NCBI GenBank assembly: GCA_965200215.1
Contig: OZ241369.1
Span: 1,027,787-1,091,786, forward strand
From: Alphaproteobacteria bacterium
GTDB taxonomy: Bacteria; Pseudomonadota; Alphaproteobacteria; SP197
Reading direction: 5' to 3'
Length of the DNA: 64,000 bases
In this document: positions 4,243-32,116 of the stretch, piece by piece
Position numbering within the stretch: the stretch's first letter is position 1
Layout of the letters: each line of letters starts with the position of its first letter
The notes under the pieces: generated by a model
Databases searched by the model: none
Seen by the model: the letters and a program-made list of their open reading frames with translations, nothing else
What the model was told of the DNA's origin: nothing
Made by a program: the position numbers and the translations under genes

Positions 4243-4566
4243 TCAGTTGGCGGCGGTTTCGTCGGCGGGTGCCTGGGCTAGGCGGTCGGGGCGGGCCAGG
4301 GCGCCGGCGACCGTGCCTTCGATGCGCGCCATGCGCTCGCGCAGTTCCGCCTGACCGGCCTCGATGCGGACGAGGCGTTCCTCGACGGCGGCAAACCGCG
4401 TTTCGATGCGGGTTTCCAGGGCGGCAAAGCGCGCCTCGATGGCGGCGAAGCGCTCCTCGATGCGGGTTTCCAGGGCGGCCATGTCGGCCCGCTGCCAGCC
4501 GAACAAGACGACGTTCATGGCCGCGATGGCGAAGAACAGGGTGATGAAGGGGTTGACCTTTGGCAT
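4243..4566 (-). CDS. small TM/coiled-coil protein, paralog 5
   Basis: ORF track. Confidence 0.7.
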   Translation of the reverse strand: MPKVNPFITLFFAIAAMNVVLFGWQRADMAALETRIEERFAAIEARFAALETRIETRFAAVEERLVRIEAGQAELRERMARIEGTVAGALARPDRLAQAPADETAAN

Positions 4567-4599: not shown

Positions 4600-4830
4600 C
4601 GCATGGGGCGCGGGTGGCCAAGGGTGGCGGGTGGCGGCCGGTGGCTAGTGGTTAGTGGTTAGTGGGAGCGGGGGGTGGGGGGTGGGGGCGGTGCCTGGCG
4701 GCGGGATGCTCGGTCGGTGCCTGGAGGCGGGGCGCCGGCGCTCGGGGGGATGGTGTGTGGGCGGGCCGGACGGCCCGCCGGGGGACGTGTGGCTGACGGC
4801 GGTGCCCGGGGGTGCGCTGGGTGGTGGGTG
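4600..4830. repeat. composite GC-rich repeat element
   Basis: Heptamer array + core motifs. Confidence 0.7.
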
Positions 4831-6059: not shown

Positions 6060-6314
6060 GGGGTAGTGGATAGTGGATAGTGGCCAGTAGCCAGTGGTCG
6101 GTGGCCAGTGGGAGCGGGTGGTGGAGAGGGTGCCCGGCGGTGGGGGGAGTGCGTTGACGGGCCTACGGCCCGTTTGCCGGCGGGACGCCGGCGCTCCCAG
6201 GGGGCGGGACGCCTGGGGGTGGTGGCAAACGGTGCCTGGCCGTTTTCGAACCTAGGCGCTACCGCAAAGATCCAGCGCCACCCGCTCTCACCATCCACTA
6301 ACCACTAGCCACTA
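6060..6314. repeat. composite GC-rich repeat element (heptamer arrays + core + GGCAAACGG...TTCGAACC terminal module), interrupted by IS
   Basis: Motifs as elsewhere. The heptamer array continues at 7165-7200 on the other side of the IS. Confidence 0.7.
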
Positions 6315-7162
6315 GGCTCAGGACCCATAAACGGTCTTGAGTATTGTTGTGAGAAGTGGTTCAAGCTCTTCCAGATATAGAGGAGGCTATCATGTCTGAC
6401 CACCACTTCTGGTTATCGGATGCCCAGTTCGCCCGCATCCAGCCGCTGTTGCCCAACAAGGTGCGCGGTGTGCCCCGGGTCGATGACCGGCGCGTCATCT
6501 CGGGCATCATCCACGTCATTCGCAACGGGCTGAGGTGGCGTGACGCGCCGCCTGAATACGGTCCTCACAAGACCCTCTACAACCGCTTCGTGCGCTGGAG
6601 CAGGGCTGGCGTATTCGGACGCATCTTCGAGGCTCTGGCTGCCGACAGCCGGGCGTCGGGGACGGTGATGATCGACGCCACCTACCTGAAGGCTCACCGG
6701 ACTGCGGCCAGCCTGCTCAAAAAGGGGCTTTTCCGCGATGTATCGGGCGTAGCCGAGGCGGCTTGAACTCGAAGCTGCACGCGGTTTGCGACGGCGATGG
6801 CAAGCCCTTGATCCTGCTGCTGACCGAGGGGCAGGCCAGCGACTACCGGGGTGCCGAGGCCATCTTGCCGGCAGTGCCGGACGCCGATGTCCTGATCGCC
6901 GACAAGGGCTATGACAGCGACCGTTTCCGCCAAGCCCTGGCCGAACGGCGCATCGAGACATGCATCCCCGGACGGGCGAACCGCAAGAGGCCGGTAGAAT
7001 ATGACCCAAAGCTATACCAGCGGCGAAACCTCATCGAACGGATGTTCGGAAGGCTCAAGGACTGGAGGCGCATCGCCACACGATACGACCGATGCGCGCA
7101 CACCTTCTTTAGCGCTATCTGCATCGCCGCCACCGTCATCTTCTGGTTATGAGTCCTGAGCC
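6315..7162 (+). mobile_element. IS5-family insertion sequence (IS427-group-like), about 848 bp, imperfect terminal IRs GGCTCAGGACCCATAAACGG / GGCTCAGGACTCATAACCAG (rc), flanked by TA duplication, inserted into a heptamer array
   Basis: Terminal inverted repeats found by eye. Two overlapping transposase ORFs. Flanks ...CCACTA|IS|TAGCCACTGG. Confidence 0.8.
6392..7152 (+). CDS. IS5-family transposase, orfA (6392..6766) and orfB (to 7152) joined by a programmed -1 frameshift near CTC-AAA-AAG (about 6716-6724)
   Basis: ORF track (6356..6766 and 6763..7152). orfB frame is -1 relative to orfA and open back to the A-run. AGGAGG RBS directly before ATG 6392. DDE_Tnp_1-type sequence in orfB. Confidence 0.8.
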
Positions 7163-7236: not shown

Positions 7237-8595
7237 ATGGTGGAAGCTGTGCGCGTGATCGGCGGCGGGCTGGCCGGGACGGAGGCGGCCTGGCAGATCG
7301 CGCGCGCCGGGCTGCCGGTGGTGCTGGAGGAGATGCGCCCGCAACGCTCCACCCCCGCCCACCGGACCGGGCTGCTGGCGGAGCTGGTCTGTTCCAACTC
7401 CTTCCGTTCCGACGACGGCGACAACAACGCCGTCGGCCTGCTGCACGAGGAGCTGCGGCGGGCCGGTTCCGTCGTGATGGCGGCGGCCGACCGCCACCGG
7501 GTGCCGGCGGGAAGCGCGCTGGCGGTGGACCGGGAGGGCTTCGCGGCGGCGGTGGAGGCGGCGGTGGCGGGCGAGAGGTCGATCGCGGTGGCCCGGCGCG
7601 AGGCGCGGCGCCTGCCCGATGCCGGCCCGGCCATCGTCGCCACCGGGCCGCTGACCTCCGACGCGCTGGCGGCCGACATCCTCCGGGCCACGGGGGCGGA
7701 GGCGCTGGCCTTTTTCGACGCCATCGCGCCCATCGTGCACCGCGACAGCATCGATTTCGACGTCGCCTGGATGCAGTCGCGCTACGACAAGGCGGGGCGC
7801 CCCGGCGACGAGGCGGCCTATATCAATTGCCCGCTTTCGAGGGACGCCTACGACGCTTTCGTGGACGGGCTGGTGGCGGCCGAGGAGGCCGGGTTCCGGG
7901 AGTGGGAGCGGGAGACGCCCTATTTCGAGGGCTGCCTGCCGATCGAGACCATGGCCAGGCGCGGGCGCAACAGCCTGCGTTTCGGCCCCATGAAGCCGGT
8001 GGGCCTCACCGACCCCGGAAGCGGCGAGCGGCCCTTCGCCGTGGTGCAGCTGCGCCAGGACAACGCGCAGGGGACGCTGTTCAACATGGTGGGCTTTCAG
8101 ACCAAGCTGAAGCACGGCGAGCAGCTGCGCCTGTTTCGCACCGTGCCCGGCCTGGGCGAGGCCCGTTTCGCGCGGCTGGGCGGGATGCACCGCAACACCT
8201 TCATCAACAGCCCGGCGCTGCTGGATGGGGCGCTGCGGCTGCGGCGGCGCCCGCATCTGCGCTTCGCCGGCCAGATCGCTGGCGTCGAGGGCTATGTGGA
8301 AAGCGCCGCCATCGGCCTGCTGGCCGGGCGCTTCGCGGCGCTGGAACGGCAGGGGCGCGCCATCCATCCACCGCCGGCGACCACCGCCCTGGGGGCGCTG
8401 CTGAACCACATCACGGTGGGCGCCGACGCCAGCAGCTTTCAGCCCATGAACTGCAATTTCGGGCTGTTCCCGCCGCCGGACCCGCGCCTGCGCGGCAAGC
8501 AGCGGCGCGCCTCCTTCGCCATCCGCGCCCGCGCCGATCTCGGCGCCTGGCTGCAACGGCACGAAGGGCTGTTTGCGGGAGGGGCTGGGGGTTAG
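7237..8595 (+). CDS. trmFO: methylenetetrahydrofolate--tRNA-(uracil54-C5)-methyltransferase TrmFO
   Basis: ORF track. N-terminal FAD motif [12 protein letters not shown]. Conserved [14 protein letters not shown] region. Confidence 0.9.
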
Positions 8596-8599
8596 GGGC

Positions 8600-9135
8600 C
8601 GGTGGCCGGTGGCCAGTGGTTAGTGGTTAGTGGCTAGTGGTCAGTGGCTAGTGGTGCGGGTGGTGTGTGGCGGTGCCTGGCGGTGGGGTGTGGTGCGTTG
8701 ACGGGCCTTGCGGCCCGTTTGCCGGCGGGACGCCGGCGCTCCCAGGGGGCGCGTGTGGCTGACGATGGTGCCTGGGGCAGGTGGCTAGTGGTCAGTGGCC
8801 GGTGGCTAGTGGCCAGTGGTGCGGGTGGTGTGTGGCGGTGCCTGGCGGTGGGGTGTGGTGCGTTGACGGGCCTTGCGGCCCGTTTGCCGGCGGGACGCCG
8901 GCGCTCCCAGGGGGCGCGTGTGGCTGACGATGGTGCCTGGGGCAGGTGGCTAGTGGTCAGTGGCCGGTGGCTAATGGCCAGTGGTGCGGGTGGTGTGTGG
9001 TGGTGCCTGGCGGTGGGGACGGTGCGTGGGCGGGCCTTCGGCCCGTTTGCCGGCGGGACGCCGGCGCTCGGGGAAACGATGTGTGGGCGGGCCTGACGGC
9101 CCGCCGGGGGGCGTGACGCTGGCGGCGGTGCCTGG
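8600..9135. repeat. three tandem copies of the composite repeat element (about 178-bp units duplicated at 8644-8820 and 8822-9000, plus a third core)
   Basis: Near-identical tandem blocks, each ending in heptamer arrays. Confidence 0.75.
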
Positions 9136-12477: not shown

Positions 12478-12800
12478 TGGGTGGCCGGTGGTCGGTGGTC
12501 AGTGGCTAGTGGTTAGTGAGAGCGGGTGGTGGGGGTGGTGCCTGGCGGTGGGGTGTGGTGCGTCGGCGGGCCTTCGGCCCGTTGCTGGCGGGACGCCGGC
12601 GCTCGGGGAACGGTGTGTGGGCGGGCCTGGCGGCCCGCCGGGGGGCGGGACGCTCGGTCGGTGCCTGGGGGCGATGGGTGGCTGGCGGTGGTGCCTGGGG
12701 GCGATGGGTGGCTGGCGGTGGTGCCTGGGGGCGATGGGTGGCTGGTGGCGGTGCCTGGGGGCGATGGGTGGCTGGTGGCGGTGCCTGGTGGTGAAGGGGG
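12478..12800. repeat. composite repeat element with internal 30-bp tandem repeat (GTGCCTGGGGGCGATGGGTGGCTGGCGGTG x4.3, 12661..12795)
   Basis: Direct inspection. Confidence 0.8.
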
Positions 12801-13077: not shown

Positions 13078-13155
13078 GGTGGCTATAGCTCAGCAGGTTA
13101 GAGCGCCTGGTTGTGGTCCAGGAGGCCGTCGGTTCGAATCCGACTAGCCACCCCA
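13078..13155 (+). tRNA. tRNA-His (anticodon GTG) with encoded G-1 and CCA
   Basis: Cloverleaf by eye: GGTGGCTA / D-arm GCTCAGCAGGTTAGAGC / anticodon stem CCTGG-TTGTGGT-CCAGG / T-arm GTCGGTTCGAATCCGAC / TAGCCACC-CCA. Very similar to E. coli tRNA-His. Confidence 0.9.
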
Positions 13156-19384: not shown

Positions 19385-19560
19385 CAGGGTGGGGGTGGCC
19401 GGTGGCTAGTGGCTAGTGGCTAGTGGTTAGTGAGAGCGGGGGGTGGGGGTGGTGCCTGGCGGTGGGCGTGTGGTGCGTTGACAGGCCTTTGGCCCGTTTG
19501 CCGGCGGGACGCCGGCGCTCCCAGGGGGCAGGACGCTGGCGGCGGTGCCTGGGGCGTGGA
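19385..19560. repeat. composite GC-rich repeat element
   Basis: Motifs. Confidence 0.7.
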
Positions 19561-19629
19561 GCGCCGGATGGGGGCGTGTTAGCCTTGCCGGGCGCTGCCC
19601 AGTGGCGGCGGGAGAGCGGCGGTGGGGCG

Positions 19630-22600
19630 ATGAGTGGACGATTTTTCGAGCGCCCGATCCTGAACTCGCCCTATGAGCGTCCGCAGCGCTACTGGAAGCT
19701 GGACGAGCACGGCCAGCCCAGCGACCTGGTCGTGCCTTGCCGCCGGGAGGTCGATTTCATCACCCCGATCCCCCAACCCAGGAAGCGCAGGGGCGGCAGG
19801 GGGCAGCCGACGCTGGCCCTGGAAAACGAGGCGGCGCGGCGGCTGTCCAGCGAAGGGCAGCGATACGATCTGGCCACCGCCATCAACGCCATCCGCCAGC
19901 GGGTGGACCGCTGGCGGGCGCTGCCGGAGGCGCAATGGCGGGTGACGCCGGAAACCGCCCGTCTGCTCCGCCACTGGCGTGGCCATCGCTTCGCCGATTT
20001 CCGGCCCTTCTTCTGCCAGGTCGAGGCGGTGGAGACCGCAATCTGGCTGACCGAGGTCGCGCCGGCCATCGGCGGTACCGGGCGGGTGTTTCTCGACCAT
20101 CTGGCGACGGTCAACGACGAGGCCAATCCCGGCCTCGCCCGGCTGGCCCTGAAGCTGGCCACCGGGGCCGGCAAGACCACGGTGATGGCGATGCTGATCG
20201 CCTGGCAGACGGTCAACGCGGTGCGCCACCCGGGCAGCCGGCGCTTCACGCGCGGTTTTCTGGTGACGACGCCCGGCATCACCATCCGCGACCGGTTGCG
20301 CGTGCTCCAGCCCAACGACCCCGACAGCTACTATCGCAGCCGCGAACTGGTGCCCGCCGACATGCTGGCCGATCTGGAGCGGGCGAAGATCGTCATCACC
20401 AACTTCCACGCCTTCGGGCGGCGCGAGACGATGACGGTCTCCAAGGGCGGGCGGGCCCTGCTCCAGGGCCGCGGCGGGGCGCTGCCGTCGCTGGAGAGCG
20501 AAGGGCAGATGCTGCGGCGCGTCATGCCGGAACTGATGGGCATGAAGGGCGTCATGGCGCTGAACGACGAAGCCCATCACTGCTATCGGGAAAAGCCGGG
20601 CGAGGCGGACGAGGGCGAGCTGGCCGGCGACGAGCGCCGGGAAGCCGAAGACAACCGCGAGGCGGCCAGGCTCTGGATCTCCGGCCTGGAAGCGGTGGGG
20701 CGCAAGCTGGGGCTGGCCCGCGTCGTCGACCTTTCGGCGACGCCGTTCTTCCTGCGCGGTTCCGGCTATGCCGAAGGGACGCTGTTTCCCTGGACGGTGA
20801 GCGATTTCTCGCTGATGGACGCCATCGAATGCGGCATCGTCAAGCTGCCGCGGGTGCCGGTGGCCGACAACGACCCAAGCGCCGACGTCCCCAAATTCCG
20901 CAATCTGTGGGAGCATGTCGGCAAGCGGATGCCGAAGAAGGGCGCCGCCGGGGCGGGAAGCCTCGATCCCCTGAAGATCCCCGTCGAGCTGCAGACGGCG
21001 CTGGAAGCCCTCTATGGGCATTACGAGAGGACCTTCGAGCTGTGGCAGCAGGCCGGCATCGACGTGCCGCCCTGTTTCATCGTCGTGTGCAACAACACCG
21101 CCACCTCGAAGCTGCTGTTCGACTACATCGCCGGCTTCGAGCGCCGCCAGGGCGACGGCTCCACCGCGCCGGTGCCCGGGCGCCTGTCCCTGTTCCGCAA
21201 TTGGGACGAGAACGGCGTGCGCCTGGGGCGGCCCCGCACCGTCCTCATCGACAGCCGCCAGCTGGAGTCCGGCGAGGCCCTGGATCCGCGCTTCCGCGCC
21301 CTGGCCGCCGGCGAGATCGAACGCTTCCGCCGCGAGATCGTCGAACGCACCGGCGACCGCCGCCAGGCCGACAACCTTTCCGACCAGGAGCTGCTGCGCG
21401 AGGTTCTCAACACCGTCGGCAAGGCGGGGCGGCTGGGCGGCGACATTCGCTGCGTGGTCTCCGTCTCCATGCTGACCGAGGGCTGGGACGCCAACACCGT
21501 CACCCACATCCTGGGCGTGCGCGCCTTCGGGACGCAGCTTCTGTGCGAGCAGGTGGTGGGCCGCGCCCTGCGCCGCCATTGCTACGAGCTCAACGAAGAC
21601 GGCCTCTTCGACGCCGAATATGCCGACGTGTTCGGCATCCCCTTCGACTTCACGGCCAGGCCGGTGGCGGTGGCCCCGCAACCGCCGCGCAAGGTGGTGC
21701 AGGTGAAGGCCATCGCCGAGCGCGCCAGGCTGGAGATCCGCTTCCCGCGCGTCGCCGGCTACCGGGTGGAACTGCCCGAAGAACGCCTGGAAGCCCGTTT
21801 CGACGCCGATTCCACCCTGGTGCTGACGCCCGAATGTGTCGGCCCCTCCGTCACCCACAACGAGGGCATCGTCGGCGAAGGCGTGGACCTGCACATCAAG
21901 CACCTCGACGGCGTGCGCCGGGCCACCCTGCTCTTCCATCTCGCCAAGTATCTGCTGGAGACGAAATATCACGACGCCGACGAAGCGCCCAAGCAGCACC
22001 TGTTCGGCCAGCTGAAGTCGATCGCCGGCCAGTGGCTGGACCGCCATCTGGTCTGCAAAGGCGGCACCCGCCAGGCGCAGCTTCTCTACCGGCAGCTGGC
22101 CGACTTGGCCTGCGAGCGCATCGCGCGGGCCATCACCGTCCGCTATGCCGACCAGCGCCCGGTGACGGCGGTGCTCGACCCCTACAACCCGGAAGGCTCC
22201 ACCGCCTGGGTCCATTTCGCCACCTCAAAGGCCACCTGGCGCACCCATCCCGCCCGCTGCCACATCGACCACGTGGTCTGCGACAGCAATTGGGAGGCGG
22301 AGTTCTGCCGCGTCGCCGAGGGGCATCCGGCCGTCCTCGCCTATGCCAAGAACCAGGGCCTGGGACTGGAGATCCCCTGGAGCCAGGGGGCGGAGCCGCG
22401 CATCTATCTGCCCGATTTCGTGCTGCGCCTGGACGACGGGCGCGGAGCCGACGATCCGCTGCATCTGATCGTCGAGATCAAGGGCTGGCAAGGCGAGGAG
22501 GCCAAGGACAAGAAGGCGACGGTGGAGACCTACTGGATCCCCGGCGTCAACCGGCTGGCCCGCTTCGGGCGCTGGGCCTTCGCCGAGTTTCGCGACGTCT

Positions 22601-22665
22601 GGGAGATCGAGGACGGCTTTGCGCGGCTGGTGGCGGGGCTGCGGGGTGGGGGCGTTAGTGGATAG
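19630..22665 (+). CDS. type III restriction enzyme Res-like subunit (SF2 helicase with DEAH box LNDEAHHC + C-terminal endonuclease region)
   Basis: ATG 19630 within ORF 19423..22665. Walker A LATGAGKT. DEAH motif. 1011 aa. C-terminal stop inside a heptamer array. Confidence 0.75.
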   Translation: MSGRFFERPILNSPYERPQRYWKLDEHGQPSDLVVPCRREVDFITPIPQPRKRRGGRGQPTLALENEAARRLSSEGQRYDLATAINAIRQRVDRWRALPEAQWRVTPETARLLRHWRGHRFADFRPFFCQVEAVETAIWLTEVAPAIGGTGRVFLDHLATVNDEANPGLARLALKLATGAGKTTVMAMLIAWQTVNAVRHPGSRRFTRGFLVTTPGITIRDRLRVLQPNDPDSYYRSRELVPADMLADLERAKIVITNFHAFGRRETMTVSKGGRALLQGRGGALPSLESEGQMLRRVMPELMGMKGVMALNDEAHHCYREKPGEADEGELAGDERREAEDNREAARLWISGLEAVGRKLGLARVVDLSATPFFLRGSGYAEGTLFPWTVSDFSLMDAIECGIVKLPRVPVADNDPSADVPKFRNLWEHVGKRMPKKGAAGAGSLDPLKIPVELQTALEALYGHYERTFELWQQAGIDVPPCFIVVCNNTATSKLLFDYIAGFERRQGDGSTAPVPGRLSLFRNWDENGVRLGRPRTVLIDSRQLESGEALDPRFRALAAGEIERFRREIVERTGDRRQADNLSDQELLREVLNTVGKAGRLGGDIRCVVSVSMLTEGWDANTVTHILGVRAFGTQLLCEQVVGRALRRHCYELNEDGLFDAEYADVFGIPFDFTARPVAVAPQPPRKVVQVKAIAERARLEIRFPRVAGYRVELPEERLEARFDADSTLVLTPECVGPSVTHNEGIVGEGVDLHIKHLDGVRRATLLFHLAKYLLETKYHDADEAPKQHLFGQLKSIAGQWLDRHLVCKGGTRQAQLLYRQLADLACERIARAITVRYADQRPVTAVLDPYNPEGSTAWVHFATSKATWRTHPARCHIDHVVCDSNWEAEFCRVAEGHPAVLAYAKNQGLGLEIPWSQGAEPRIYLPDFVLRLDDGRGADDPLHLIVEIKGWQGEEAKDKKATVETYWIPGVNRLARFGRWAFAEFRDVWEIEDGFARLVAGLRGGGVSG

Positions 22666-22870
22666 TGGATAGTGGATAGTGGATAGTGGTTAGTGGCCGG
22701 TGGCCAGTAGCCAGTGGTCGGTGGGAGTGGGTGGCTGGTGGTGGTGCCTGGCGGCTGGGGGGTGGTGCGTTGACGGGCCTTTGGGCCGGTAGCCGGTGGC
22801 CGGTGGTCGGTGAGAGTGGGTGGCTGGCGGTGGTGCCTGGGGGTGGCTGACGGCGGCTGCCTGTTTTCAC
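22655..22870. repeat. composite GC-rich repeat element (heptamer arrays GGATAGT/GGTTAGT...)
   Basis: Motifs. Confidence 0.7.
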
Positions 22871-23206: not shown

Positions 23207-23408
23207 GTGTCCCTGGATAGTGGCCGGTGGCCGGTGGCCAGTGGTCGGTGGGAGTGGGTGGCTGGCGGTGGTGCCTGGCGGCTGGGGAGTGGGGCGTTGA
23301 CGGGCCTTTGGGCCGTTTGCCGGTGGGGTGGCGGTGCTCCCAGGGGGCGGTGGCACCGGCGGTGCCTGCCTGTTTTCATGCCGGGGCGCTGCCCGATGAA
23401 AACACGTG

Positions 23409-23626: not shown

Positions 23627-23908
23627 ATGAGACCACAGAAGACGGCGGCAGCCGACAGCCAGCAGCAGGAGGTCGACCGCAATTACAAGGCCTTCAAGAC
23701 GATGCTTCCCGAACTCATCAAGAGCGACGCCGGCAGAACGGCCCTGATGCGCGACGGAAAGGTCGTGGCCTGCTTCGATACGGATCGCGACGCCATCCAG
23801 GCCGGCCGCACGATGTTCGAGGATCAGCGCTTCTCGATTCAGGAAGTCACCAATCGCGCCGTCGATCTTGGGTATTTCTCCCGTGTCGGCGTTCTCGGGG
23901 CGGTTTGA
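23627..23908 (+). CDS. hypothetical protein (93 aa)
   Basis: ORF with GGGGAGGA RBS 7 nt upstream; no recognisable family. Confidence 0.45.
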   Translation: MRPQKTAAADSQQQEVDRNYKAFKTMLPELIKSDAGRTALMRDGKVVACFDTDRDAIQAGRTMFEDQRFSIQEVTNRAVDLGYFSRVGVLGAV

Positions 23909-24332
23909 CTGGAACGCCGGCCTGATCTGGCAGGTCGGCTTCGTTTCTGGAGCCACCCCAGTGGCGGCTGCGGGCACTCCCGGCGCGCTTCATGTCTGCC
24001 CAGCACTCGTCGACACCGGTGCGACACGGACTTGTATTGCAAAATCCGTTGTCGAAGCCCTTGGCCTGCACTCCATCGGAAGAACAAGCATGGACACTGC
24101 TGGAGGAGCGGCCAATGCCAATATCTACGACACGCATATCGTTCTATTGACGGATCATGCGCAGAACCCAGACGGGACCGTCGATGTACAAGCTCAATTA
24201 TTTCATAATATCAGGGTGCTGGAATTCGTCGCCGATGGGAATACGCCCTATCAGGCCTTGATCGGGCGTGACATTCTGCGCATCGGTATGCTCACGATGT
24301 CGCGGGATGGCTATTTTTCCTTTGCGTTTTGA
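23868..24332 (+). CDS. retropepsin-like (clan AA) aspartic protease family protein; start uncertain (TTG 23868 or GTG about 23883, or frameshift fusion with the upstream ORF)
   Basis: Motifs ALVDTGATRTCI (D-T/S-G-A active site) and ALIGRDIL flap/helix region. Confidence 0.55.
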   Translation: MGISPVSAFSGRFDWNAGLIWQVGFVSGATPVAAAGTPGALHVCPALVDTGATRTCIAKSVVEALGLHSIGRTSMDTAGGAANANIYDTHIVLLTDHAQNPDGTVDVQAQLFHNIRVLEFVADGNTPYQALIGRDILRIGMLTMSRDGYFSFAF

Positions 24333-24389
24333 GCTACGACACGAACAGGGGACTCCCGCTCCTGAGCGCCGTCGAGCCAGGCTGAGCCT

Positions 24390-25208
24390 ATGGCGAAGAA
24401 GCCCGGTGGAAAGGGCGAGAGCATCGCAACCCTCGATCCCGACGCGCTCCAGAAGCTCCTGTGCGAGCGTCTGTGCGAGGACGTAAGGGTCGAACGCCGT
24501 CCCGACGGCGCGCTGATGCTGCGCGCCCATTTCCGCTTCCCGGACGGCGATGGCTACCCCATCCATCTTTGCCAGGCGCCCGCCGGCGGGCTGCGGCTGT
24601 CGGATCGCGGCCACACCCTCATGCATCTGAGCTATGAGCACGACGTCGACATGTTCATGGACGGCACCCGCGCCATGCTGCTCGAACGCATCCTGACGGA
24701 GAGCGGTTTGCAGTGGGAGGGCGGCGCCTTGTGCCTGGACACCGCCCCGGAACGGCTGCCGGAGGCGCTGTTCCGCTTCGGCCAGGCGCTCACCAGGGTA
24801 TACGACCTGACCTTCCTCTCCCGTTCCAATGTCGGTTCCACCTTTTACGACGATCTCGCCGACCTTCTCCGCCAGCTGGTGGACGAGGACAAGATGCAGC
24901 GCGATTACCGGCCGGACGTGCCCAATGCCGACGCCTATCCGGTGGATTACCGCATCGAGGGCAAGGACGGCGTGCCGCTGTTCCTCTACGGCGTGCCCAA
25001 TCGCGACAAGGCGCGGCTAACGACCGTCATGTTGTCGCACTTCCATCGCCACGCGCTCGATTTCGAGTCCATCGTCGTGTTCGAGGACCAGGCCGAGATG
25101 CCCAGGATGGACCTGGCCCGCCTTTCGGACGTCGGCGGGGAGATGGTCGCATCGCTGGAATCGCGGGAGGATCTCGCACGCAAGCTGCGGTGGCGGATTG
25201 CGGCGTGA
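24390..25208 (+). CDS. hypothetical protein (DUF1828/DUF1829-like two-domain protein; assignment tentative)
   Basis: ORF track; codon usage typical of the host GC. Confidence 0.5.
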   Translation: MAKKPGGKGESIATLDPDALQKLLCERLCEDVRVERRPDGALMLRAHFRFPDGDGYPIHLCQAPAGGLRLSDRGHTLMHLSYEHDVDMFMDGTRAMLLERILTESGLQWEGGALCLDTAPERLPEALFRFGQALTRVYDLTFLSRSNVGSTFYDDLADLLRQLVDEDKMQRDYRPDVPNADAYPVDYRIEGKDGVPLFLYGVPNRDKARLTTVMLSHFHRHALDFESIVVFEDQAEMPRMDLARLSDVGGEMVASLESREDLARKLRWRIAA

Positions 25209-25214
25209 TGGCGC

Positions 25215-25600
25215 GGTGGGGGGTAGTGGCTGGTGGGTAGTGGATAGTGGATAGTGGATAGTGGTTAGTGGCCGGTAGCCAGTGGCCGGTGGTCGGTGGG
25301 AGTGGGTGGCTGGTGGCGGTGCCTAGCGGCTGGGGGGTGGTGTGTCGACGGGGCTTTGGGCCGTTTGCCGGTGGGGTGGCGGCGCTCGGGGGAATTTCGT
25401 GCGCGGGCGGGCCGGACGGCCCGCCGGGGGGCGGGACGCTGGCGGCGGTGCCTGGGGGTGGTGGCTGGCGGTGGCTGCCTGTTTTCATGCCGGGGCGCTG
25501 CCCCTCTCCTCCAGGTGCGCCCGTTCCCACTGGCCACTGGCCACCGGCCACCGGCTACTGGCCACCGGCCACTAACCACTAACCACTAGCCACTGGCCCC
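25215..25600. repeat. composite GC-rich repeat element (two heptamer arrays in inverted orientation flanking core)
   Basis: Motifs. Confidence 0.7.
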
Positions 25601-25665
25601 GCCCGGCGTATCGACGGTTTGGCTTTTCCGGGCCACACTGCGGGTGTGGCGTGGGGGTGGATTTC

Positions 25666-28600
25666 ATGGTGGGGAAGCGCAGGGGGGCGAAGAGCAAGGG
25701 GGTTGCCGCCTTTACCCATGAGGGGGCGCGGCGGGCGAACATTCCCACCGCCGAGCTCGACGCGGTGATGGCCGAGGGCGAGAAGGCGGCGGTTCGCATC
25801 GCCTATGAGCGCCGCAACCGAGATCTGGACCCGCAGCTGGTCTGGCGCGGCAAGGACGAGCAGGACCAGGCCGATCTGGTGGTCCAGGCGCCGCCGCTCT
25901 ACATCCAGGAGAAGGTGCACCCCAAGGCGCTGATCGACGACCTGCTGCGCCAGTCGAAGCGGCGGCGCGACGAGGCGGCCGAAGAGGCCCCGGACCTGTT
26001 CGCCGATTTCAACGGCCTGCCCGAAGGCGCCGCCCGAACCGAGTTCTACCGCCACGACGCCAACTGGTCGAACCGCATGATCCTGGGCGACGCGCTGCGG
26101 GTGATGGCCTCGCTGGCCGAGCGCGAGGGCCTGCGCGGCAAGGTGCAGGCGATCTATATCGACCCGCCCTACGGCATCCGCTTCAACTCCAACTTCCAGT
26201 GGTCCACCGGCAGCCGCGACGTGAAGGACGGCAAGGCGGCGCATATCACCCGCGAGCCGGAGCAGGTGAAGGCCTTTCGCGACACCTGGCGCGACGGCAT
26301 CCATTCCTATCTCTCCTATCTGCGCGACCGGCTGACGGTGGCCCGCGAGCTGCTGGCCCCGAGCGGCTCGGTATTCGTGCAGATCGGCGACGAGAACGTC
26401 CACCGGGTGCGGGCGGTGATGGACGAGGTGTTCGGGGAGGGGAATTTCGTCAACCAGATCAACTGCCGCACGAATAGCGGAACCACAAGAGGCGACTCAC
26501 TCAAGCGAACGAACGACTACCTGCTTTGGTACGCAAAGAATATCGAAAGCAAGAAGTTTCGGCGATTGCTGGTTGAGCGAGACGTCGAAACAAACATGTA
26601 TAGTCAGCTCCTTTTTGAGGATTTGTCAGTTCGTCCCATGACTCAGGAAGAGAAGAAAAAGCCAACGCTAATTCCCGACACGGCTAGAGCATATAGGAAA
26701 TTACCACTCCACTCGATGAACGCCGGAGACCATACACCGCGGAAAGCATTCGGAAGGTATTGGAAAATACCATCTAACCGCAGTTGGCGCCATTCCCTGG
26801 CCGGTTTCGACCGGCTCTTGCGGTCATCTCGAATACAAGCAGACCTGAGTGCTCTTAGCAGCCGCTATTTCCACAGCGACTATATCGCCTCCGAGCTAAC
26901 CGAGACTTGGGTGGATACAGGCCCCGAAGTGGACAAGTCCTACGTAGTCCAGACGTCCGAGCGGATTGTCCAACGCTGCCTGCTGATGACCACCGACCCC
27001 GGCGACCTGGTGCTGGACCCGACCTGCGGTTCCGGCACCACCGCCTATGTCGCCGAGCAATGGGGCCGGCGCTGGATCACCATCGACACCTCGCGGGTGG
27101 CGCTGGCGCTGGCCCGGGCGCGGATCATGGGCGCGCGCTATCCCTGGTATATCCTGGCCGACAGCCCGGAAGGGCAGAGGAAGGAAGCGGAACTGGACCG
27201 GCGCGCGCCTTCCGAGGCGGCGACCGGCGGCGATGTCCGCCAGGGCTTCGTCTATCGGCGGGTGCCGCATGTGACGCTGAAATCGATCGCCAACAATGCG
27301 GAGATCGATGCGATCTGGGAGAGGTGGGAGGGGGTGTTGGGGGCGTTGCGGAGTCAACTATCAGTTGCCAGTGGCCAGTCGCCAGTGGCCAGTGACCGGC
27401 AACCGGCGACTGGCGACCGGCCACCGGCCACCGGCAACCGGCCACTGGAGGAATGGCAGATTCCCCGCGAGGCTGGCGCCGGCTGGCCCGACGAGGCGAA
27501 GGCGGCGCATGCCGAGTTCTGGCAGGCGCGCATCGGACGGCAGAAGGAGATCGACGCCTCCATCGCCGCCAGGGCCGACAGCGAATATCTCTACGACAAG
27601 CCCTATGAGGACAGGGAGCGCATCCGCGTCGCCGGCCCGTTCACGGTGGAAAGCCTGGCGCCGCACCGCACCGTGGCCAGCGAGGGGGAAGGCGCCGCCG
27701 AAGACGGCCACGGATACCACGGCGGCGGGGCCTTCCCGGAACGCGATTTCACCGCCCTGGTGCTGGAGCAGCTGCGGGCTGCCGGCGTGCAGCAGGCCCG
27801 CAAGGACGACCGCATCGACATCGCCTCCATCGAGGGCTGGCCGGGGCGTTCCATCTGCGCCACGGGGCGCTTTCGCGAAGGCGGGGCCGAACGCCGGGCC
27901 GGCATCCTGATCGGCCCCGAATTCGGCACCGTTTCCAAGCCCGACCTGACCGCCGCCGCCCGCGAGGCGGCCGAGGCCGGTTTCGACGCGCTGATCGCCT
28001 GCGCCTTCAGCTACGACGCCCATGCCAGCGAGTTCGACCGCCTGGGCCGGGTGCCGGTGCTGAAGGCGCGCATGAACGCCGATCTGCACATGGCCGGCGA
28101 GCTGAAGAACACCGGCAAGGGGAACCTGTTCGTGGTGTTCGGGGAGCCTGATATAGAAGTGGCCGGTGGCCGGTGGCTAGTGGCCAGAAACGGGAAGATG
28201 ATCGCGCGTTATGAGCACGTCAAAGAGCTATCAGGACTTGGAAGTCTGGAAGAAATCAATGGAGCTGGCGGAAGAGGTCTATCGGCTCTCTGCCGGGTGG
28301 CCGGCGGAGGAGCGATTCGGTCTGACCGGTCAGATGCGCCGCGCGACGGTGTCCATCCCGGCGAACATCGCGGAGGGAGCGGAGCGGCACGGAACGCGGG
28401 AGTTTCTCCACTTTCTGGGGATAGCGAGCGGCTCCCTGGCGGAAACGGAGACCCTTCTGATTCTGGCCCGGAGGCTGGGGATGTCTCCGCCCGAACGGAT
28501 TTCACCGCTTCTGGAACGAGCCGGGGAGATCGGACGGATGCTCAACGGCCTCAAGCGATCGCTGCGATCGAGGCATTGAACGACGGCGACTTCCCGCTTT

Positions 28601-28944
28601 CACTGACCACCGGCCACTGGCTACAGGTCGCCATTCGCGGTATCGACATTTATCGCCCCGACACGGGTCAGATTCACAGCGACGGTCCCGACGGCATCGC
28701 GCTGTGGTTCGTGGACAGCGACTACAACGAGGAGAGCTTTTTCGTTCGCCAGGCCTATTTCCTGGGCGCCAACGACCCCTACAAGGCGCTGAAGACGACG
28801 CTGAAGGCCGAGATCGACCCGCAGGCCTGGGCGAGCCTGAACAGCGACACCTCCCGCCCCTTCCCCGCCCCCGCCTCGGGCCGCATCGCCGTCAAGGTCA
28901 TCAACCACCTGGGCGACGAGGCGATGAAGGTGTTCCGGGTGTGA
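25666..28944 (+). CDS. type III-like Mod DNA methyltransferase (beta-class N6A/N4C MTase: motif IV IYIDPPYG precedes motif I DPTCGSGTT), mosaic ORF with AT-richer TRD (about 26460-26900) and two repeat-associated insertions; integrity uncertain
   Basis: ORF track 25651..28944 (ATG 25666 alternative). MTase motifs. Conserved C-terminal module ...RIAVKVINHLGDEAMKVFRV. Confidence 0.65.
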   Translation: MVGKRRGAKSKGVAAFTHEGARRANIPTAELDAVMAEGEKAAVRIAYERRNRDLDPQLVWRGKDEQDQADLVVQAPPLYIQEKVHPKALIDDLLRQSKRRRDEAAEEAPDLFADFNGLPEGAARTEFYRHDANWSNRMILGDALRVMASLAEREGLRGKVQAIYIDPPYGIRFNSNFQWSTGSRDVKDGKAAHITREPEQVKAFRDTWRDGIHSYLSYLRDRLTVARELLAPSGSVFVQIGDENVHRVRAVMDEVFGEGNFVNQINCRTNSGTTRGDSLKRTNDYLLWYAKNIESKKFRRLLVERDVETNMYSQLLFEDLSVRPMTQEEKKKPTLIPDTARAYRKLPLHSMNAGDHTPRKAFGRYWKIPSNRSWRHSLAGFDRLLRSSRIQADLSALSSRYFHSDYIASELTETWVDTGPEVDKSYVVQTSERIVQRCLLMTTDPGDLVLDPTCGSGTTAYVAEQWGRRWITIDTSRVALALARARIMGARYPWYILADSPEGQRKEAELDRRAPSEAATGGDVRQGFVYRRVPHVTLKSIANNAEIDAIWERWEGVLGALRSQLSVASGQSPVASDRQPATGDRPPATGNRPLEEWQIPREAGAGWPDEAKAAHAEFWQARIGRQKEIDASIAARADSEYLYDKPYEDRERIRVAGPFTVESLAPHRTVASEGEGAAEDGHGYHGGGAFPERDFTALVLEQLRAAGVQQARKDDRIDIASIEGWPGRSICATGRFREGGAERRAGILIGPEFGTVSKPDLTAAAREAAEAGFDALIACAFSYDAHASEFDRLGRVPVLKARMNADLHMAGELKNTGKGNLFVVFGEPDIEVAGGRWLVARNGKMIARYEHVKELSGLGSLEEINGAGGRGLSALCRVAGGGAIRSDRSDAPRDGVHPGEHRGGSGAARNAGVSPLSGDSERLPGGNGDPSDSGPEAGDVSARTDFTASGTSRGDRTDAQRPQAIAAIEALNDGDFPLSLTTGHWLQVAIRGIDIYRPDTGQIHSDGPDGIALWFVDSDYNEESFFVRQAYFLGANDPYKALKTTLKAEIDPQAWASLNSDTSRPFPAPASGRIAVKVINHLGDEAMKVFRV
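27355..27450. repeat. palindromic heptamer-repeat array inserted in-frame inside the Mod coding region
   Basis: GCCAGTG/GCCAGTC units followed by their inverse (CCGGCAA/CCGGCGA...); translates as VASGQSPVASDRQPATGDRPPATGNRP. Confidence 0.75.
28211..28579 (+). CDS. four-helix-bundle protein (23S rRNA intervening-sequence protein family-like), nested inside the Mod ORF in a different frame
   Basis: ORF track. Sequence MSTSKSYQDLEVWKKSMELAEEVYRLS...IPANIAEG...ETETLLILARRLG matches my recollection of that family. Flanked by heptamer repeats at about 28160-28195 and 28595-28625. Confidence 0.6.
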   Translation: MSTSKSYQDLEVWKKSMELAEEVYRLSAGWPAEERFGLTGQMRRATVSIPANIAEGAERHGTREFLHFLGIASGSLAETETLLILARRLGMSPPERISPLLERAGEIGRMLNGLKRSLRSRH

Positions 28945-28948
28945 GGCC

Positions 28949-30079
28949 ATGGCGGGGCTGGACTGGATCACCATCGAGGGTTTCAAGAGCATCGCCTCCA
29001 TCGAGAGGCTGCCGCTGCGCCCGATCAACGTGCTGATCGGCGCCAACGGTTCGGGGAAGTCGAATTTCGTCGAGGCCTTTTCGTTTCTGCACGCGATACG
29101 GTCCAGGAAGCATCACGACCATGTCATGCGCGCGGGGGGCGGCGACAGGATTCTTCATTTCGGCGCGCGAACGACGCCCCAGTTGAAGCTTCACATCTCT
29201 TTCGAAGAACAAGTGTATCAATATGAGATAGCACTGGCGCCGGACGATGGAGATCACCTCTTTCCGTCGGGGGAATGTACCTATTTCTGGAACAAACATG
29301 TGTATGAACCTTACATCGAGCCCCTTATGGGAAGCCATGGCCATGCGGGCATCAGCCGCCCGTATTTCAAGCCAACAACACCCACAGCGAATTATGTCCA
29401 GAAGCACCTGGACAGCTGGCGCCTGTATCACTTCCCGGATACCGGCGCCGCATCGCCGCTGAAGAAGACGGGCGACGTAAACGACAACCGCTTTCTGCGG
29501 CCCGACGGCTCCAACCTGGCGGCGTTCCTGTATCGGCTGCGCGAGACGGAGCAGGACCGCTACCGGCTGATACGGGACACGGTGCGCCTGGCGGCGCCGT
29601 TCTTCGAGGATTTCGCGCTCGAACCCCTGGTCCTGCACGAGGACAAGATCCCCCTGGAGTGGAAGCACCGGGGGAAAGACGCCTATTTCGACGCCTCCTC
29701 CCTTTCGGACGGCACCCTGCGCTTCATGGCGCTGGCGACGCTGCTGCTTCAGCCGCAGACGCTGCGGCCCTCGGCCATCCTCCTGGACGAGCCGGAACTG
29801 GGCCTGCACCCCTATGCCATCGCGCTTCTCGCCTCGCTGATCGGGCAGGCTTCGGCCGAGACCCAGGTGATTCTGGCCACCCAGTCCTCGCTGCTGCTGG
29901 ACCATTTCAGCCCCGAAGACGTGCTGGTGGCGGAGCGGGCGCGCGGGGCCACCACGCTGACCCGGCTGAAGCCCGAAGAGCTGAAGGAATGGCTGGACGA
30001 CTACAGCCTGGGCCAGCTGTGGGAGAAGAACGAGTTCGGCGGGCGCCCCTCACCCGAAGAGGCGGGCGAGAGGGGATGA
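28949..30079 (+). CDS. AAA_21/ABC-type ATPase (OLD/abortive-infection-like ATPase; Walker A GANGSGKSN, Walker B LLDEPELGLHP)
   Basis: ORF track; start immediately after the Mod stop. Confidence 0.7.
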   Translation: MAGLDWITIEGFKSIASIERLPLRPINVLIGANGSGKSNFVEAFSFLHAIRSRKHHDHVMRAGGGDRILHFGARTTPQLKLHISFEEQVYQYEIALAPDDGDHLFPSGECTYFWNKHVYEPYIEPLMGSHGHAGISRPYFKPTTPTANYVQKHLDSWRLYHFPDTGAASPLKKTGDVNDNRFLRPDGSNLAAFLYRLRETEQDRYRLIRDTVRLAAPFFEDFALEPLVLHEDKIPLEWKHRGKDAYFDASSLSDGTLRFMALATLLLQPQTLRPSAILLDEPELGLHPYAIALLASLIGQASAETQVILATQSSLLLDHFSPEDVLVAERARGATTLTRLKPEELKEWLDDYSLGQLWEKNEFGGRPSPEEAGERG

Positions 30080-30321
30080 CGCGCCTGCTCGTGCATGTGG
30101 AAGGCCAGACGGAGGAGAGTTTCGTCGACCGGATTCTGGCGCCTCACCTTTACCGGCGCGGCTTTTCTTCGATCGGCGCCCGCCTGCTCGGCAACGCCCG
30201 CCAGCGCGAGCGGCGCGGCGGCATCAAGCCCTGGCACGCGGCCCGCAGGGACATCCTGGGCCATCTGCGGCAGGACCGCGAGGCCGTGGCCAGTGGCCGG
30301 TGGCTAGTGGTTAGTGGCTAG
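30076..30321 (+). pseudogene. DUF4276-like gene remnant (N-terminal about 80 aa: MTRLLVHVEGQTEESFVDRILAPHLY...), truncated by insertion of a repeat element
   Basis: ATGA start/stop overlap with the ATPase. Family members are about 200 aa (from memory). ORF ends inside a long heptamer array. Confidence 0.5.
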
Positions 30322-30560
30322 TGGTTAGTGGCTAGTGGTTAGTGGCTAGTGGTTAGTGGCTAGTGGTTAGTGGTCGGTGGGCGGTGGCCAGTAGCCGGTG
30401 GCTAGTGGTTAGTGGTTAGTGGGAGCGGGTGGTGGGGGTGGTGCCTGGCGGTGGGGTGTGGTGCGTTGACGGGCCTGCGGCCCGTTTGCCGGCGGGACGC
30501 CGGCGCTCCCAGGGGGGCGCCGGGTGGCGGGGGCGCGGTAAGGGCGGCAACCATGGCGAG
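30290..30560. repeat. composite GC-rich repeat element with long heptamer array ((GGCTAGT GGTTAGT) x7)
   Basis: Direct inspection. Confidence 0.8.
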
Positions 30561-30640
30561 GAGGCGATGCGAGGTGTTTCGGGTGTGACGGCGACTCCAA
30601 CATCCAGTATCGTATGCGACACGGCTTGGGGGGATTGAGC

Positions 30641-32116
30641 ATGAGCGGACCTGCCAGCGATTCTTCGCCCAATCGGTCGCCGAAGGCTCCCGATGTGCGC
30701 ATCTCCGTCAGCAATTTCGGCCCCATCGCGAAGGGAAGCATCGACCTTCGGCCCATGAACATCTTCGTCGGGCCGAGCAACACGGGCAAGACCTATTTTG
30801 CCACCTTGATCTATGCAATTCATCGAATCACGAGGGGTTTTCCGCGACTCCCTCCAACTATGAGCTACATTTTCAACGATGTTGAAAATTTTGCGGGGGT
30901 GATTTACCAGATTGTTAAGAATTTTGACTCTGGACAAAGAAATCATCCTGGATCCGGGCGCGACCGGATTCAGCCCACGCTTATCGATCACAATCCCGTG
31001 GCCCATGACTGGGAAATTGAATTAGAGCGTTGCTTCGATGTCGGTGCTCTTTCCGAACTGATTCAGACTCAAAGCGAATCAACCGGAGCAAAGATCGATC
31101 TGTCAATCGAGGATAAAAAGAGCCTCCTTTGGAATTTTCATGTAAAGGTGCCGACTCACGGTATTCGGGGCGATGGAAAGATAGGGAATTTCAAAATTGA
31201 GCACATATTTCCTGATTTCGAAAAGAAAGCTGAAAAAGTATTCTCGGCCAATTCAATAATAGAGGCTATAACCAACCTACAGAAACTGTTCGAATTCGAG
31301 AAATCAAACGAATCCGACGTGTACTACCTGCCATCCGACAGAGGCGGTCTCATACATAGCCACCCCGCTATCGCAATATCTTTGCTTAAACGTGCAACTC
31401 GACTGAACACCAAGCGCCATTCGGAGATCCCCACTTTCTCCGGGGTTATGACCGATTTCATGCGGCATATCATCGCCTATGAGGATTCCGAACTGCGTGA
31501 CGAAAAGCCGGAGAACGAGTTGGCGAAAATCGCGAGCGAATTGGAAAGCCGGGTGCTCGATGGAAGGATCGAGACTGTCCGGGCAGCGTCCCGCGGCTAT
31601 CCTGACGTGGTGTATCGGCCGGAGGGAATGGAAAAGGGCATGCGGTTGAATCGCGCCTCGTCCATGGTATCCGAACTCGCGCCGGTGGTCCTCTTCATCC
31701 GTGGCCATGTTCGCGTCGGCGACACCGTAATCATCGACGAGCCGGAAGCCCATCTTCATCCCGCCGCGCAGACCGAGATGGCGACGGCGCTGGCGCGTCT
31801 GGTGCGGGCCGGCGTTCGGGTGGTGATGACCACGCACAGCGAATGGCTGCTCCAGGAGATCGGCAACCTGATGCGGGAGGGGGAGTTGGGGGAAGGGAAT
31901 GGCGACTCTCCGAGTCTTCATCCTCGCGACGTCGGCGCCTGGCTATTCAAGAAGAAAGGATCGGAGGGCTCCAACGTGGAGGAGATTCGATTCGACCGCA
32001 TCGAAGGCATCGGGCCGCCGGATTACGAAGACGTCGCCGAAAGCCTCTATAACCGCTCGGCAGAGCTGCAGAACCGCCTCGCAGAGACGGACGGCGGCGG
32101 CGAGTCGGGGGCATGA
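30641..32116 (+). CDS. AAA-type ATPase (AAA_15/21-like; Walker A VGPSNTGKTYF, Walker B VIIDEPEAHLHP), AT-richer gene
   Basis: ATG 30641 (GGGGGA RBS) within ORF 30614..32116. Confidence 0.7.
   Translation: MSGPASDSSPNRSPKAPDVRISVSNFGPIAKGSIDLRPMNIFVGPSNTGKTYFATLIYAIHRITRGFPRLPPTMSYIFNDVENFAGVIYQIVKNFDSGQRNHPGSGRDRIQPTLIDHNPVAHDWEIELERCFDVGALSELIQTQSESTGAKIDLSIEDKKSLLWNFHVKVPTHGIRGDGKIGNFKIEHIFPDFEKKAEKVFSANSIIEAITNLQKLFEFEKSNESDVYYLPSDRGGLIHSHPAIAISLLKRATRLNTKRHSEIPTFSGVMTDFMRHIIAYEDSELRDEKPENELAKIASELESRVLDGRIETVRAASRGYPDVVYRPEGMEKGMRLNRASSMVSELAPVVLFIRGHVRVGDTVIIDEPEAHLHPAAQTEMATALARLVRAGVRVVMTTHSEWLLQEIGNLMREGELGEGNGDSPSLHPRDVGAWLFKKKGSEGSNVEEIRFDRIEGIGPPDYEDVAESLYNRSAELQNRLAETDGGGESGA

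Follow-up and report, generated by a model that had tools for sequence, protein, structure and literature searches.

What is a palindromic array of 7-nt repeats doing in the middle of a DNA methyltransferase gene, and where did it come from? The question arises in a 64,000-nt stretch of an alphaproteobacterial genome (GCA_965200215.1, contig OZ241369.1, positions 1,027,787–1,091,786; hereafter the window), in which mod, a Type III-like N6/N4 DNA methyltransferase gene, carries two inserts. Site 1 holds the array, a hairpin without a gene of its own. Site 2, 0.8 kb downstream in the same open reading frame (ORF), holds a full 466-nt cassette (28159–28624) across which the Mod frame is open and whose heptamer arms enclose a PF05635 gene. 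On balance, we favor the reading that the site-1 hairpin is a cargo-less derivative of this heptamer-armed cassette, comparable to a MITE (miniature inverted-repeat transposable element), lodged in a permissive loop and kept in frame by purifying selection. An earlier note on this DNA had seen at site 1 an offshoot of the genome's intergenic arrays and a possible phasevarion switch. Its picture of a fast-evolving heptamer element that a Type III-like mod gene accommodates without loss of frame stands; its proposals on origin and phase variation find no support.

The site-1 array forms a long, imperfect hairpin that is read through by Mod. Direct reading places it at 27362–27445, 84 nt comprising 12 imperfect heptamers or 28 codons, slightly inside the 27355–27450 first claimed. 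Tandem Repeats Finder (TRF) resolves it into (CAGTGGC)×4.7 at 27362–27394 and (ACCGGCA)×6.9 at 27395–27442, and a repeat search finds an inverted repeat of 36 nt, 81% complementary, with 3 nt between the arms. Complementarity between the arms (Table 1) is imperfect: ACCGG stands in most 3' units in place of the ACTGG of a perfect complement, which gives the stem one A·C mismatch per 7-nt unit. Folded as RNA, the segment is predicted to reach −57.6 kcal/mol (z = −6.0), a stability equalled by 0 of 200 dinucleotide shuffles. In the Mod frame the array translates as ...LSVASGQSPVASDRQPATGDRPPATGNRPLEEW..., as the earlier note had it; the peptide across the hairpin includes SQLSVASGQSPVASDR, and the whole encodes a low-complexity linker, SVASGQ...PATGNRP. 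Direct reading finds no ORF between the arms, and the longest run of identical consecutive units is 2 (CCGGCCA CCGGCCA). In Rfam at E ≤ 1, site 1 returned only sub-threshold miRNA-precursor hairpin models and no known RNA family.

The units at site 1 are those of the genome's family with certain types purged. Read in the same register as the genome's arrays, the 5' arm is GTTGCCA GTGGCCA GTCGCCA GTGGCCA GTGACCG, which bears out the suggestion that it belongs to the same RGTGGYY family as the intergenic arrays. Units ending in TA, which make TAG with the next unit, number 0 of 13 at site 1 and 83 of 233 in the other arrays (p = 0.005), and GTGGCCR, GTTGCCR and GTCGCCR units give no stop codon in any of the six frames. 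Successive 7-nt units are read in each of the three frames in turn, so an array that survives inside an ORF must consist of stop-free units.

Homologs identify the hairpin as an insertion at a hypervariable position. Mod belongs to a very large family found in many phyla (at least 576 loci). We aligned 121 homologs from several phyla, 60–80% identical; the set contains intact proteins only, so OFF alleles cannot appear in it. Ordering by UPGMA (unweighted pair group method with arithmetic mean) on backbone identities served as a rough guide to gain and loss only. Site 1 lies between the motifs LEPLRxxL and EEWxIPRE. There, 62 of the 121 homologs have a plain 9-aa LNAALGxxW, and 59 have variants at the same codon position that range from the 11-aa SVASGQxxTL up to 44 aa. 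Short variants account for 30 (for example LSVASGQKKTL, LSAHRPL and LGAVVGATHASPL) and long forms of 20–44 aa for 29 (for example SVASGQLSVASGQWSVASGEGIV...SLATSHSPL). All eight long-form homologs whose DNA we examined have period-7 inverted arrays at site 1. Six of them fold with z of −3 to −8; L087 (−1.1) and L067 (−0.2) are not significant, and plain forms give z near 0. The length of site 1 is a multiple of 3 at all 80 genome loci and 7 further loci read at the DNA level, about 18 of which have a variant. The comparison with orthologs that the earlier note had called for thus speaks for an insertion or replacement and not a conserved linker, the hairpin being absent from many homologs that have LNAALGxxW in its place.

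Many kinds of DNA are accommodated at the two positions. Unrelated inserts occupy site 1 in Gemmobacter, L028, L057 and L079. Plasmid p6 of Gemmobacter fulvus (L168) has non-repetitive segments of 144 nt (4350–4493) and 222 nt (5217–5438) at the same two Mod sites, and a Singulisphaera metagenome-assembled genome (L028) has a different GC-rich hairpin at 4654–4731 (LTPDPSPKGRGEK / PSPKGRGE). A search of plasmids returned only distant Mod homologs, about 70–73% identical in nucleotides, with unrelated inserts at both sites. From these sequences, both Mod sites appear to be general insertion hot spots.

Site 1 also falls in a poorly predicted part of the protein. In the AlphaFold2 model of Mod, whose mean predicted local distance difference test (pLDDT) score of 61 makes it a rough guide only, residues 578–595 score below 50 and lack secondary structure, between helices 550–574 and 614–641; the cassette-encoded Mod-frame peptide (886–962) is also mostly of low confidence. 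If selection on Mod function had kept the segment as a protein linker, the palindromy of its DNA would be incidental; a segment predicted to be disordered between two helices and variable in length, as expected of linkers, would agree with this. We nevertheless regard such a linker as highly improbable, since the peptide is not conserved whereas period 7 and inverted symmetry are, and since about half of the homologs work with a 9-aa segment. The SVASGQ and (L/P)ATG(N/D/H)RP peptides, ATGNRP among them, are mere translations of complementary heptamers.

The cassette at site 2 hides a gene in the +1 frame relative to Mod. The nested ORF matches PF05635 over the entire model (E = 7.7e-39, 1–106/106) and TIGR02436 (1.1e-37), and its product, which includes the peptide SYQDLEVWK, would on these matches be an intervening-sequence protein of 23S rRNA (S23p), an Avd-like four-helix bundle. 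The full cassette encodes only this protein and no transposase or RAYT. Its arms pair in both the minimum free energy and centroid folds, and a terminal stem of about 33 bp is kept across 7 hosts with several compensatory pairs. No target-site duplication is visible at site 1 or site 2; a few host codons are replaced instead.

The nested gene is under purifying selection, and the Mod frame stays open around it across phyla. Long-form homologs carry a second insert of about 150 aa at query residues about 835–995, whose Mod-frame translation starts with VASGxWLV and ends with LSLTTxHW, the same arm peptides. The cassette occupies the same Mod codon in L001–L005, L081–L083, L088–L090, L098, L099 and L155, at Mod identities down to 43%. 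It comes in two types, A (486 nt) and B (459 nt), and every cassette length is divisible by 3. No stop interrupts the Mod frame in any homolog examined, even at 48–52% GC; the third frame has 4–9 stops in each of six type-A cassettes for which they were counted, and type-B cassettes have many. Variation across cassettes is concentrated at codon position 3 of the nested gene (0.413, versus 0.174 and 0.123 at the other two), so protein selection acts on the nested frame, and all that is required of the Mod frame is that it stay open. When the nested gene was permuted synonymously, the Mod frame stayed open in only 6–26% of trials per sequence. Site 2 also presents a decay series, from 486/459 through internally deleted forms of 270 and 225 to 48 nt, in which the arms and the Mod frame are kept throughout. 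The nested PF05635 proteins had no exact match in a collection of 15 billion proteins, a miss that another choice of start codon could explain; it suggests that gene callers skip nested same-strand ORFs.

The arms of site-1 hairpins resemble the ends of site-2 cassettes. In L083, the site-1 5' arm and loop align through the cassette leader to the start codon of the nested gene, and the 3' arm matches that locus's own cassette end at 47 of 58 positions and the end in L001 at 35 of 38. The site-1 element of L067 aligns to the ends of type-B cassettes, and the window's 5' arm agrees with its own cassette arm plus leader at 31 of 37 positions. Two flavors of hairpin parallel the two cassette types. 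The inserts also co-occur: site-1 variants are found in 58 of 94 homologs with a full or partial site-2 cassette and in 1 of 27 without (Fisher p = 2e-8, uncorrected for phylogeny).

These similarities bear on where the hairpin came from. The earlier note proposed that the genome's intergenic arrays had colonized the coding region. Two hosts, L082 and L083, have the in-gene hairpin and essentially no heptamer arrays in the 6-kb flanks on each side, so colonization by intergenic arrays is not the simplest reading and finds no support here; hairpins in array-poor hosts, together with arms that match cassette termini, indicate that the site-1 element travels with the gene and the cassette. The genome of L081 is heptamer-rich and resembles that of the window, and the array family of this genome could equally be a derived state.

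A related possibility is that the hairpin grew in place, independently of any cassette: slippage and template switching would have expanded a proto-repeat, helped by a preference of the genome's replication or repair for RGTGGYY heptamers, and the likeness of the arms would be a coincidence at the level of the unit family. The window's genome is indeed saturated with the same units, its cassette-end similarity lies mainly within repeats, and heptamers are the commonest class of long simple-sequence repeat in prokaryotes according to Mrazek 2007 as cited in PMC4679880. Local growth seems very unlikely to us all the same: the same type of hairpin occurs in the two hosts that lack such arrays, the similarity reaches the non-repeat leader and tail in L083 and L067, and the two hairpin flavors match the two cassette types.

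A near-isogenic allele reveals how quickly the hairpin changes. L081 is syntenic with the window (res gene 98.7% identical, mod backbone 97–100%), and three modules differ between them: the target-recognition region, the site-1 hairpin and the cassette. The hairpins are 80–88% identical. Aligned without gaps, they show 16 differences in about 96 nt of hairpin and 5' edge, versus 3 in 105 nt of flank; a one-unit shift makes 28 consecutive bases identical. Both hairpins total 84 nt, with a unit layout of 5+7 in the window and 4+8 in L081, and the simplest history is one of several cancelling gains and losses of whole units. The unit turnover that the earlier note expected is therefore real, most simply as whole-unit rearrangement between close relatives. 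Orthologous intergenic arrays differ in unit number (window/L081: 10/11, 11/9, 10/~13 and 20/15). That these vary while the in-ORF array keeps its 84 nt indicates that arrays slip in this lineage and that selection holds the in-ORF copy in frame.

The other two modules have been replaced. Cassette identity is 38–71%, type A facing type B: L081 has a 459-nt type-B cassette (8500–8958) at the same codon as 28153–28638 of the window, and the two PF05635 proteins are only 52% identical. A different type at the same codon indicates that the cassette was exchanged or re-acquired, with breakpoints at the arms. The target-recognition region (26404–26990) is 17–66% identical to that of L081, a swap that, judged from sequence, implies different methylation specificities in close relatives. 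The idea that the hairpins serve as recombination sites bracketing the target-recognition domain was rejected, the variable domain (aa ~265–430) lying upstream of both inserts.

Rapid turnover of a 7-nt unit invites comparison with phase variation. The gene is of the appropriate type, a Type III N6-adenine methyltransferase with a res partner, and in a contingency locus slippage by 7 nt would toggle the Mod frame ON and OFF, selected for epigenetic or defense bet-hedging. A unit length that is not a multiple of 3 suits this reading. So do units that are stop-free in every frame, such that a slip shifts the frame without an immediate stop, and so do the length changes of the lineage's arrays between near-identical genomes, with hairpin turnover on the same timescale. 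A heptamer phasevarion is known in a mod gene of Escherichia coli that produces Shiga toxin (STEC), CAGCGAC[26], a perfect tract that adjoins the start codon (PMC5909438). Site 1 departs from such tracts, which are perfect, unidirectional, long and start-adjacent: it is imperfect, short, palindromic and mid-gene. With units of at least 3 nt, a phase-variable mod tract is defined by a minimum of 3 identical units in a row (Atack et al. 2018, PMC5909438); the longest run at site 1, of 2 identical units, falls short of this. None of the 87 loci read at the DNA level is frame-shifted, in a search that favors intact proteins. The in-ORF array is exactly 84 nt in the window and L081, whose alleles are both ON, whereas the orthologous intergenic arrays vary, and the same site holds non-repetitive inserts in other homologs. 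Occasional frameshifted OFF variants must arise at site 1 by slippage, but we consider a selected switch quite unlikely, and the phasevarion proposed in the earlier note goes unsupported. Annotators of restriction–modification systems should not call such tracts phase-variation switches without population data.

The reading we favor accounts for the hairpin by loss of cargo. The full form of the cassette would consist of inverted tandem-heptamer arrays that enclose a PF05635 gene, and the site-1 hairpin would be a second copy minus the gene, with the arms kept and remnants of the leader in some homologs. It may have arisen by internal deletion or by non-autonomous copying. Its seat would be a poorly predicted, presumably unstructured loop between two helices that tolerates many kinds of insert, and it would persist because its length is a multiple of 3, its units are only of types stop-free in any frame, and the Mod fold is undisturbed. 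Whole heptamers would be gained, lost or converted at a fast pace, through replication slippage or hairpin-mediated events, and purifying selection would remove the frame-breaking variants.

Several points weigh against this derivation. No full cassette was found at site 1 in 80 genome loci, 6 Mod-hosted metagenome loci or 121 proteins, so that deletion in situ is only inferred; the arms of site 2 may instead have been the template from which the hairpin was copied, or it may have grown locally. The co-occurrence statistic takes no account of phylogeny. In the window, the match between site 1 and the cassette ends lies mostly within repeats, and only the 5' side reaches the leader, weakly; the strongest arm-to-terminus evidence comes from L083 and L067. 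In place of unit indels, about 10 clustered substitutions or a gene conversion would also account for the difference between the window and L081. Finally, we have assumed that the hairpin is neutral for Mod, and its association with the cassette and long-kept palindromy are also compatible with a role played by the RNA or DNA.

Such a role would have the stem act in cis on mod mRNA or DNA and tune expression of Mod or of the nested gene, whether as a site of processing or decay by RNase III, as an element that causes ribosome pausing or attenuation, or as a place where the PF05635 protein binds. In rRNA intervening sequences the stems serve RNase III as substrates (PMC4990558), and by analogy the site-1 stem is possibly RNase III-sensitive. 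Palindromy is kept in homologs whose arm sequences differ, the association with a PF05635 cassette in the same gene is strong, and the terminal stem of the cassette has its compensatory pairs across 7 hosts. Many homologs, however, have collapsed to one arm or a few codons (SVASGQKKTL, SAHRPL) with no foldable stem and z near 0, and 34 cassette-bearing homologs are without any site-1 variant. Cleavage inside the ORF would destroy the mod message, and the only Rfam hits are the sub-threshold, generic miRNA-hairpin models. We therefore rate a functional nucleic-acid hairpin as unlikely and retain the cargo-less cassette as our preferred reading.

The locus combines known kinds of element, S23p rRNA intervening sequences and in-frame palindromic insertions. 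Among the latter are the Rickettsia palindromic elements (RPEs), reportedly described by Ogata and colleagues in 2000 as in-frame palindromic insertions in ORFs. RPEs are translated as an extra surface segment, lie at the same site in orthologs with patchy presence, and are known only from Rickettsia. Site 1 resembles them as palindromic, selfish DNA inserted in an ORF without breaking the frame: frame and flanking protein are conserved, and the palindrome is absent from some orthologs. It differs in being built of tandem heptamers, in having a full form with a nested gene in another frame, and in its travel across phyla with a restriction–modification gene that spreads horizontally. Membership in the RPE sequence families is implausible because of the heptamer build and the host range.

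The site-2 cassette is closest to S23p rRNA intervening sequences (Coxiella burnetii, Leptospira, Brucella; PMC4990558), which are likewise bounded by a stem with a PF05635 ORF in the loop; a size class of roughly 430–490 nt is common to the known elements and the cassette. In Coxiella, the 23S rRNA intervening sequence is 428 nt long; it has a terminal stem of 28 bp and an S23p ORF, and its 2–3 tandem GACAGAT heptamers differ in number among strains (PMC4990558). The site-1 hairpin is like such a stem minus the ORF, with tandem heptamers of variable copy number in its arms. It has the long stem and the heptamer arms and lacks the enclosed PF05635 ORF and the 23S location; we file it as a derivative of the S23p cassette, not a full member. 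Unlike rRNA intervening sequences, which sit in an rRNA helix and are cut out by RNase III, the element here lies in a protein-coding mod ORF and is read through in frame, and its arms are longer heptamer arrays.

Mobile hairpins and intergenic repeat arrays provide further parallels. Like MITEs and REPINs, site 1 is a short element that forms a hairpin and matches, at its termini, a longer element of the same genome that carries a gene. Unlike them, the full element has no transposase or RAYT, no target-site duplication is seen at either site, and PF05635 has no known mobility function. Arrays of 7-nt units occur elsewhere as TAACTGA arrays in Beggiatoaceae (PMC4679880), as GGGNATC arrays (PMC4692102) and as cyanobacterial short tandemly repeated repetitive (STRR) sequences; as here, they are abundant, copy-variable and sometimes translated (LSVISYQ there, SVASGQW here). 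By published accounts those arrays are unidirectional, mostly intergenic and without a link to a cassette, unlike the inverted pairs and explicit PF05635 link of this locus. A G-quadruplex idea (PMC4692102) was set aside: the units have GG and not GGG, and the in-gene tract is a duplex-forming palindrome.

Heptamer arms are a general feature of PF05635 genes. We scanned metagenome contigs with an alignment of the nested proteins and obtained 80 loci, relatives 44–71% identical, 72 of them with both flanks; 169 displaced segments served as controls. Period 7 was the best period in the upstream flank at 55 of 72 PF05635 loci versus 13 of 169 controls, and in the downstream flank at 62 of 72 versus 12 of 169. 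The flanks were inverted repeats (score of at least 30) at 43 of 72 loci and in 0 of 169 controls. The arm unit varies by locus: GAGTGGC, CAGATGT, AGGTGTC, GGATTGA, GGCATTA, TCCAGGT and others. Nesting in frame also extends beyond Mod. Two MmeI/Eco57I-type methylases carry such a cassette just before motif I (L144, 2501–2866; L115, 421–780), and a Ser/Thr kinase carries one between the catalytic-loop HRDLKPSNILL and the DFG-containing KITDFGLAK (L095, 840–1205). Our literature search, incomplete in coverage, returned no publication that generalizes heptamer arms or describes in-frame nesting, and an earlier description is possible.

We tentatively suggest that PF05635 genes define a widespread, largely unrecognized class of "stealth" cassettes, armed with heptamers of a lineage-specific unit, with cargo-less hairpins as their footprints or cis-sites. 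Such cassettes might conceivably insert into hairpin-tolerant places (rRNA helices, intergenic DNA, surface turns of proteins), with a pentameric PF05635 protein recognizing the heptamer stem. Speculatively, they would hold the host frame open across 460–490 nt with their own gene in another frame, their copies being skipped by gene callers and absent from protein databases. The class extends perhaps to the genome-wide, STRR-like heptamer arrays of this and other bacteria, and in its broader, nested form it is possibly undescribed.

Three open questions meet at this locus: what PF05635 proteins do, how rRNA intervening sequences arose and why heptamers dominate long bacterial simple-sequence repeats. 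One gene ties them together, with a full heptamer-armed PF05635 cassette and an empty stem, both in frame, in a restriction–modification methyltransferase that spans phyla. A host ORF can conceal a gene of 122 codons in its +1 frame over long evolutionary times, apparently missed by gene callers, and searches for PF05635 genes should include the interiors of ORFs. The turnover of heptamer arrays, moreover, can be traced between near-identical genomes.

Table 1. Coordinates in the window of the mod gene, its two inserts and associated features.
Feature	Coordinates	Strand	Description
Mod, Type III-like N6/N4 DNA methyltransferase	25651–28944	+	1097 aa; both inserts read through in frame
Mod target-recognition module	26404–26990	+	aa ~265–430; exchanged relative to near-isogenic L081
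Site-1 5' arm	27362–27398	+	5 heptamers: TCAGTTG CCAGTGG CCAGTCG CCAGTGG CCAGTGA
Site-1 3' arm	27399–27445	+	7 inverted units: CCGGCAA CCGGCGA CTGGCGA CCGGCCA CCGGCCA CCGGCAA CCGGCCA CTG
Cassette 5' heptamer arm	28159–28186	+	GTGGCCG GTGGCCG GTGGCTA GTGGCCA, then leader GAAACGGGAAGATGATCGCGCGTT
Nested gene	28211–28579	+	+1 frame relative to Mod; 122-aa PF05635 / TIGR02436 protein, full-length match
Cassette 3' heptamer arm	28597–28624	−	Reverse complement GTAGCCA GTGGCCG GTGGTCA GTGAAAG
Intergenic giant hairpin	25215–25605	+	Just upstream of mod; 11-unit + array 25226–25302, 10-unit − array 25524–25593
Partner restriction subunit, BPTD_3080-family endonuclease	19423–22665	+	1080 aa, upstream of mod; weak ResIII match

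The identity of the host gene is supported by matches to Pfam N6_N4_Mtase (E = 2.8e-32) and to the PADLOC Type III methyltransferase model (MTase_III, 1233 bits). Its probable start is 25666; the database copy, P0001, begins 5 codons downstream of the ORF start. The product of the upstream partner gene scores 1285.9 bits against the BPTD_3080-family restriction endonuclease (cut-off 800). Further genes of a defense island lie at 23868–25208 and 28949–32116: an aspartyl-protease-like ORF, a DUF1828 / PDC-M24B-like ORF, a HEC-01A-like AAA_21 ATPase and a PD-T4-4 / AriA-like AAA_15 ATPase. The same neighbors recur next to homologous Mod genes.

RGTGGYY-family arrays are abundant in the window, with 38 on the + strand and 5 on the − strand. 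Units of the same family also arm the palindrome just upstream of mod, which is larger and likewise without cargo; it has a G-rich core of about 220 nt without a PF05635 gene, its fold scores z = −10.9, and it is conserved in L081, though the unit counts are others. A second large intergenic palindrome, at 6061–6315, has inverted heptamer arrays around such a core and no PF05635 gene. The intergenic family has a fixed layout: (GTGGNNR)n, an end GTG(A/G)GAG and then a conserved, terminator-like G-rich tail, TGGGTGGCTGGCGGTGGTGCCTGGCGG...GTTGACGGGCCTTTGGGCCGTTTGCC. Examples lie at 22658–22870, 23220–23320, 30286–30530 and 8602–9069; nearly all have one orientation, and they are concentrated in the first 37 kb. 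This array-plus-tail family has no Rfam match in the window, where a tRNA gene (13079–13152) is the sole match at the gathering threshold. TRF also reports tandem repeats of longer period at 3203–3370 (84 nt ×2) and 12655–12788 (30 nt ×4.4), and at 8616–9069 a tandem duplication of an array-plus-tail element (165 nt ×2.8).

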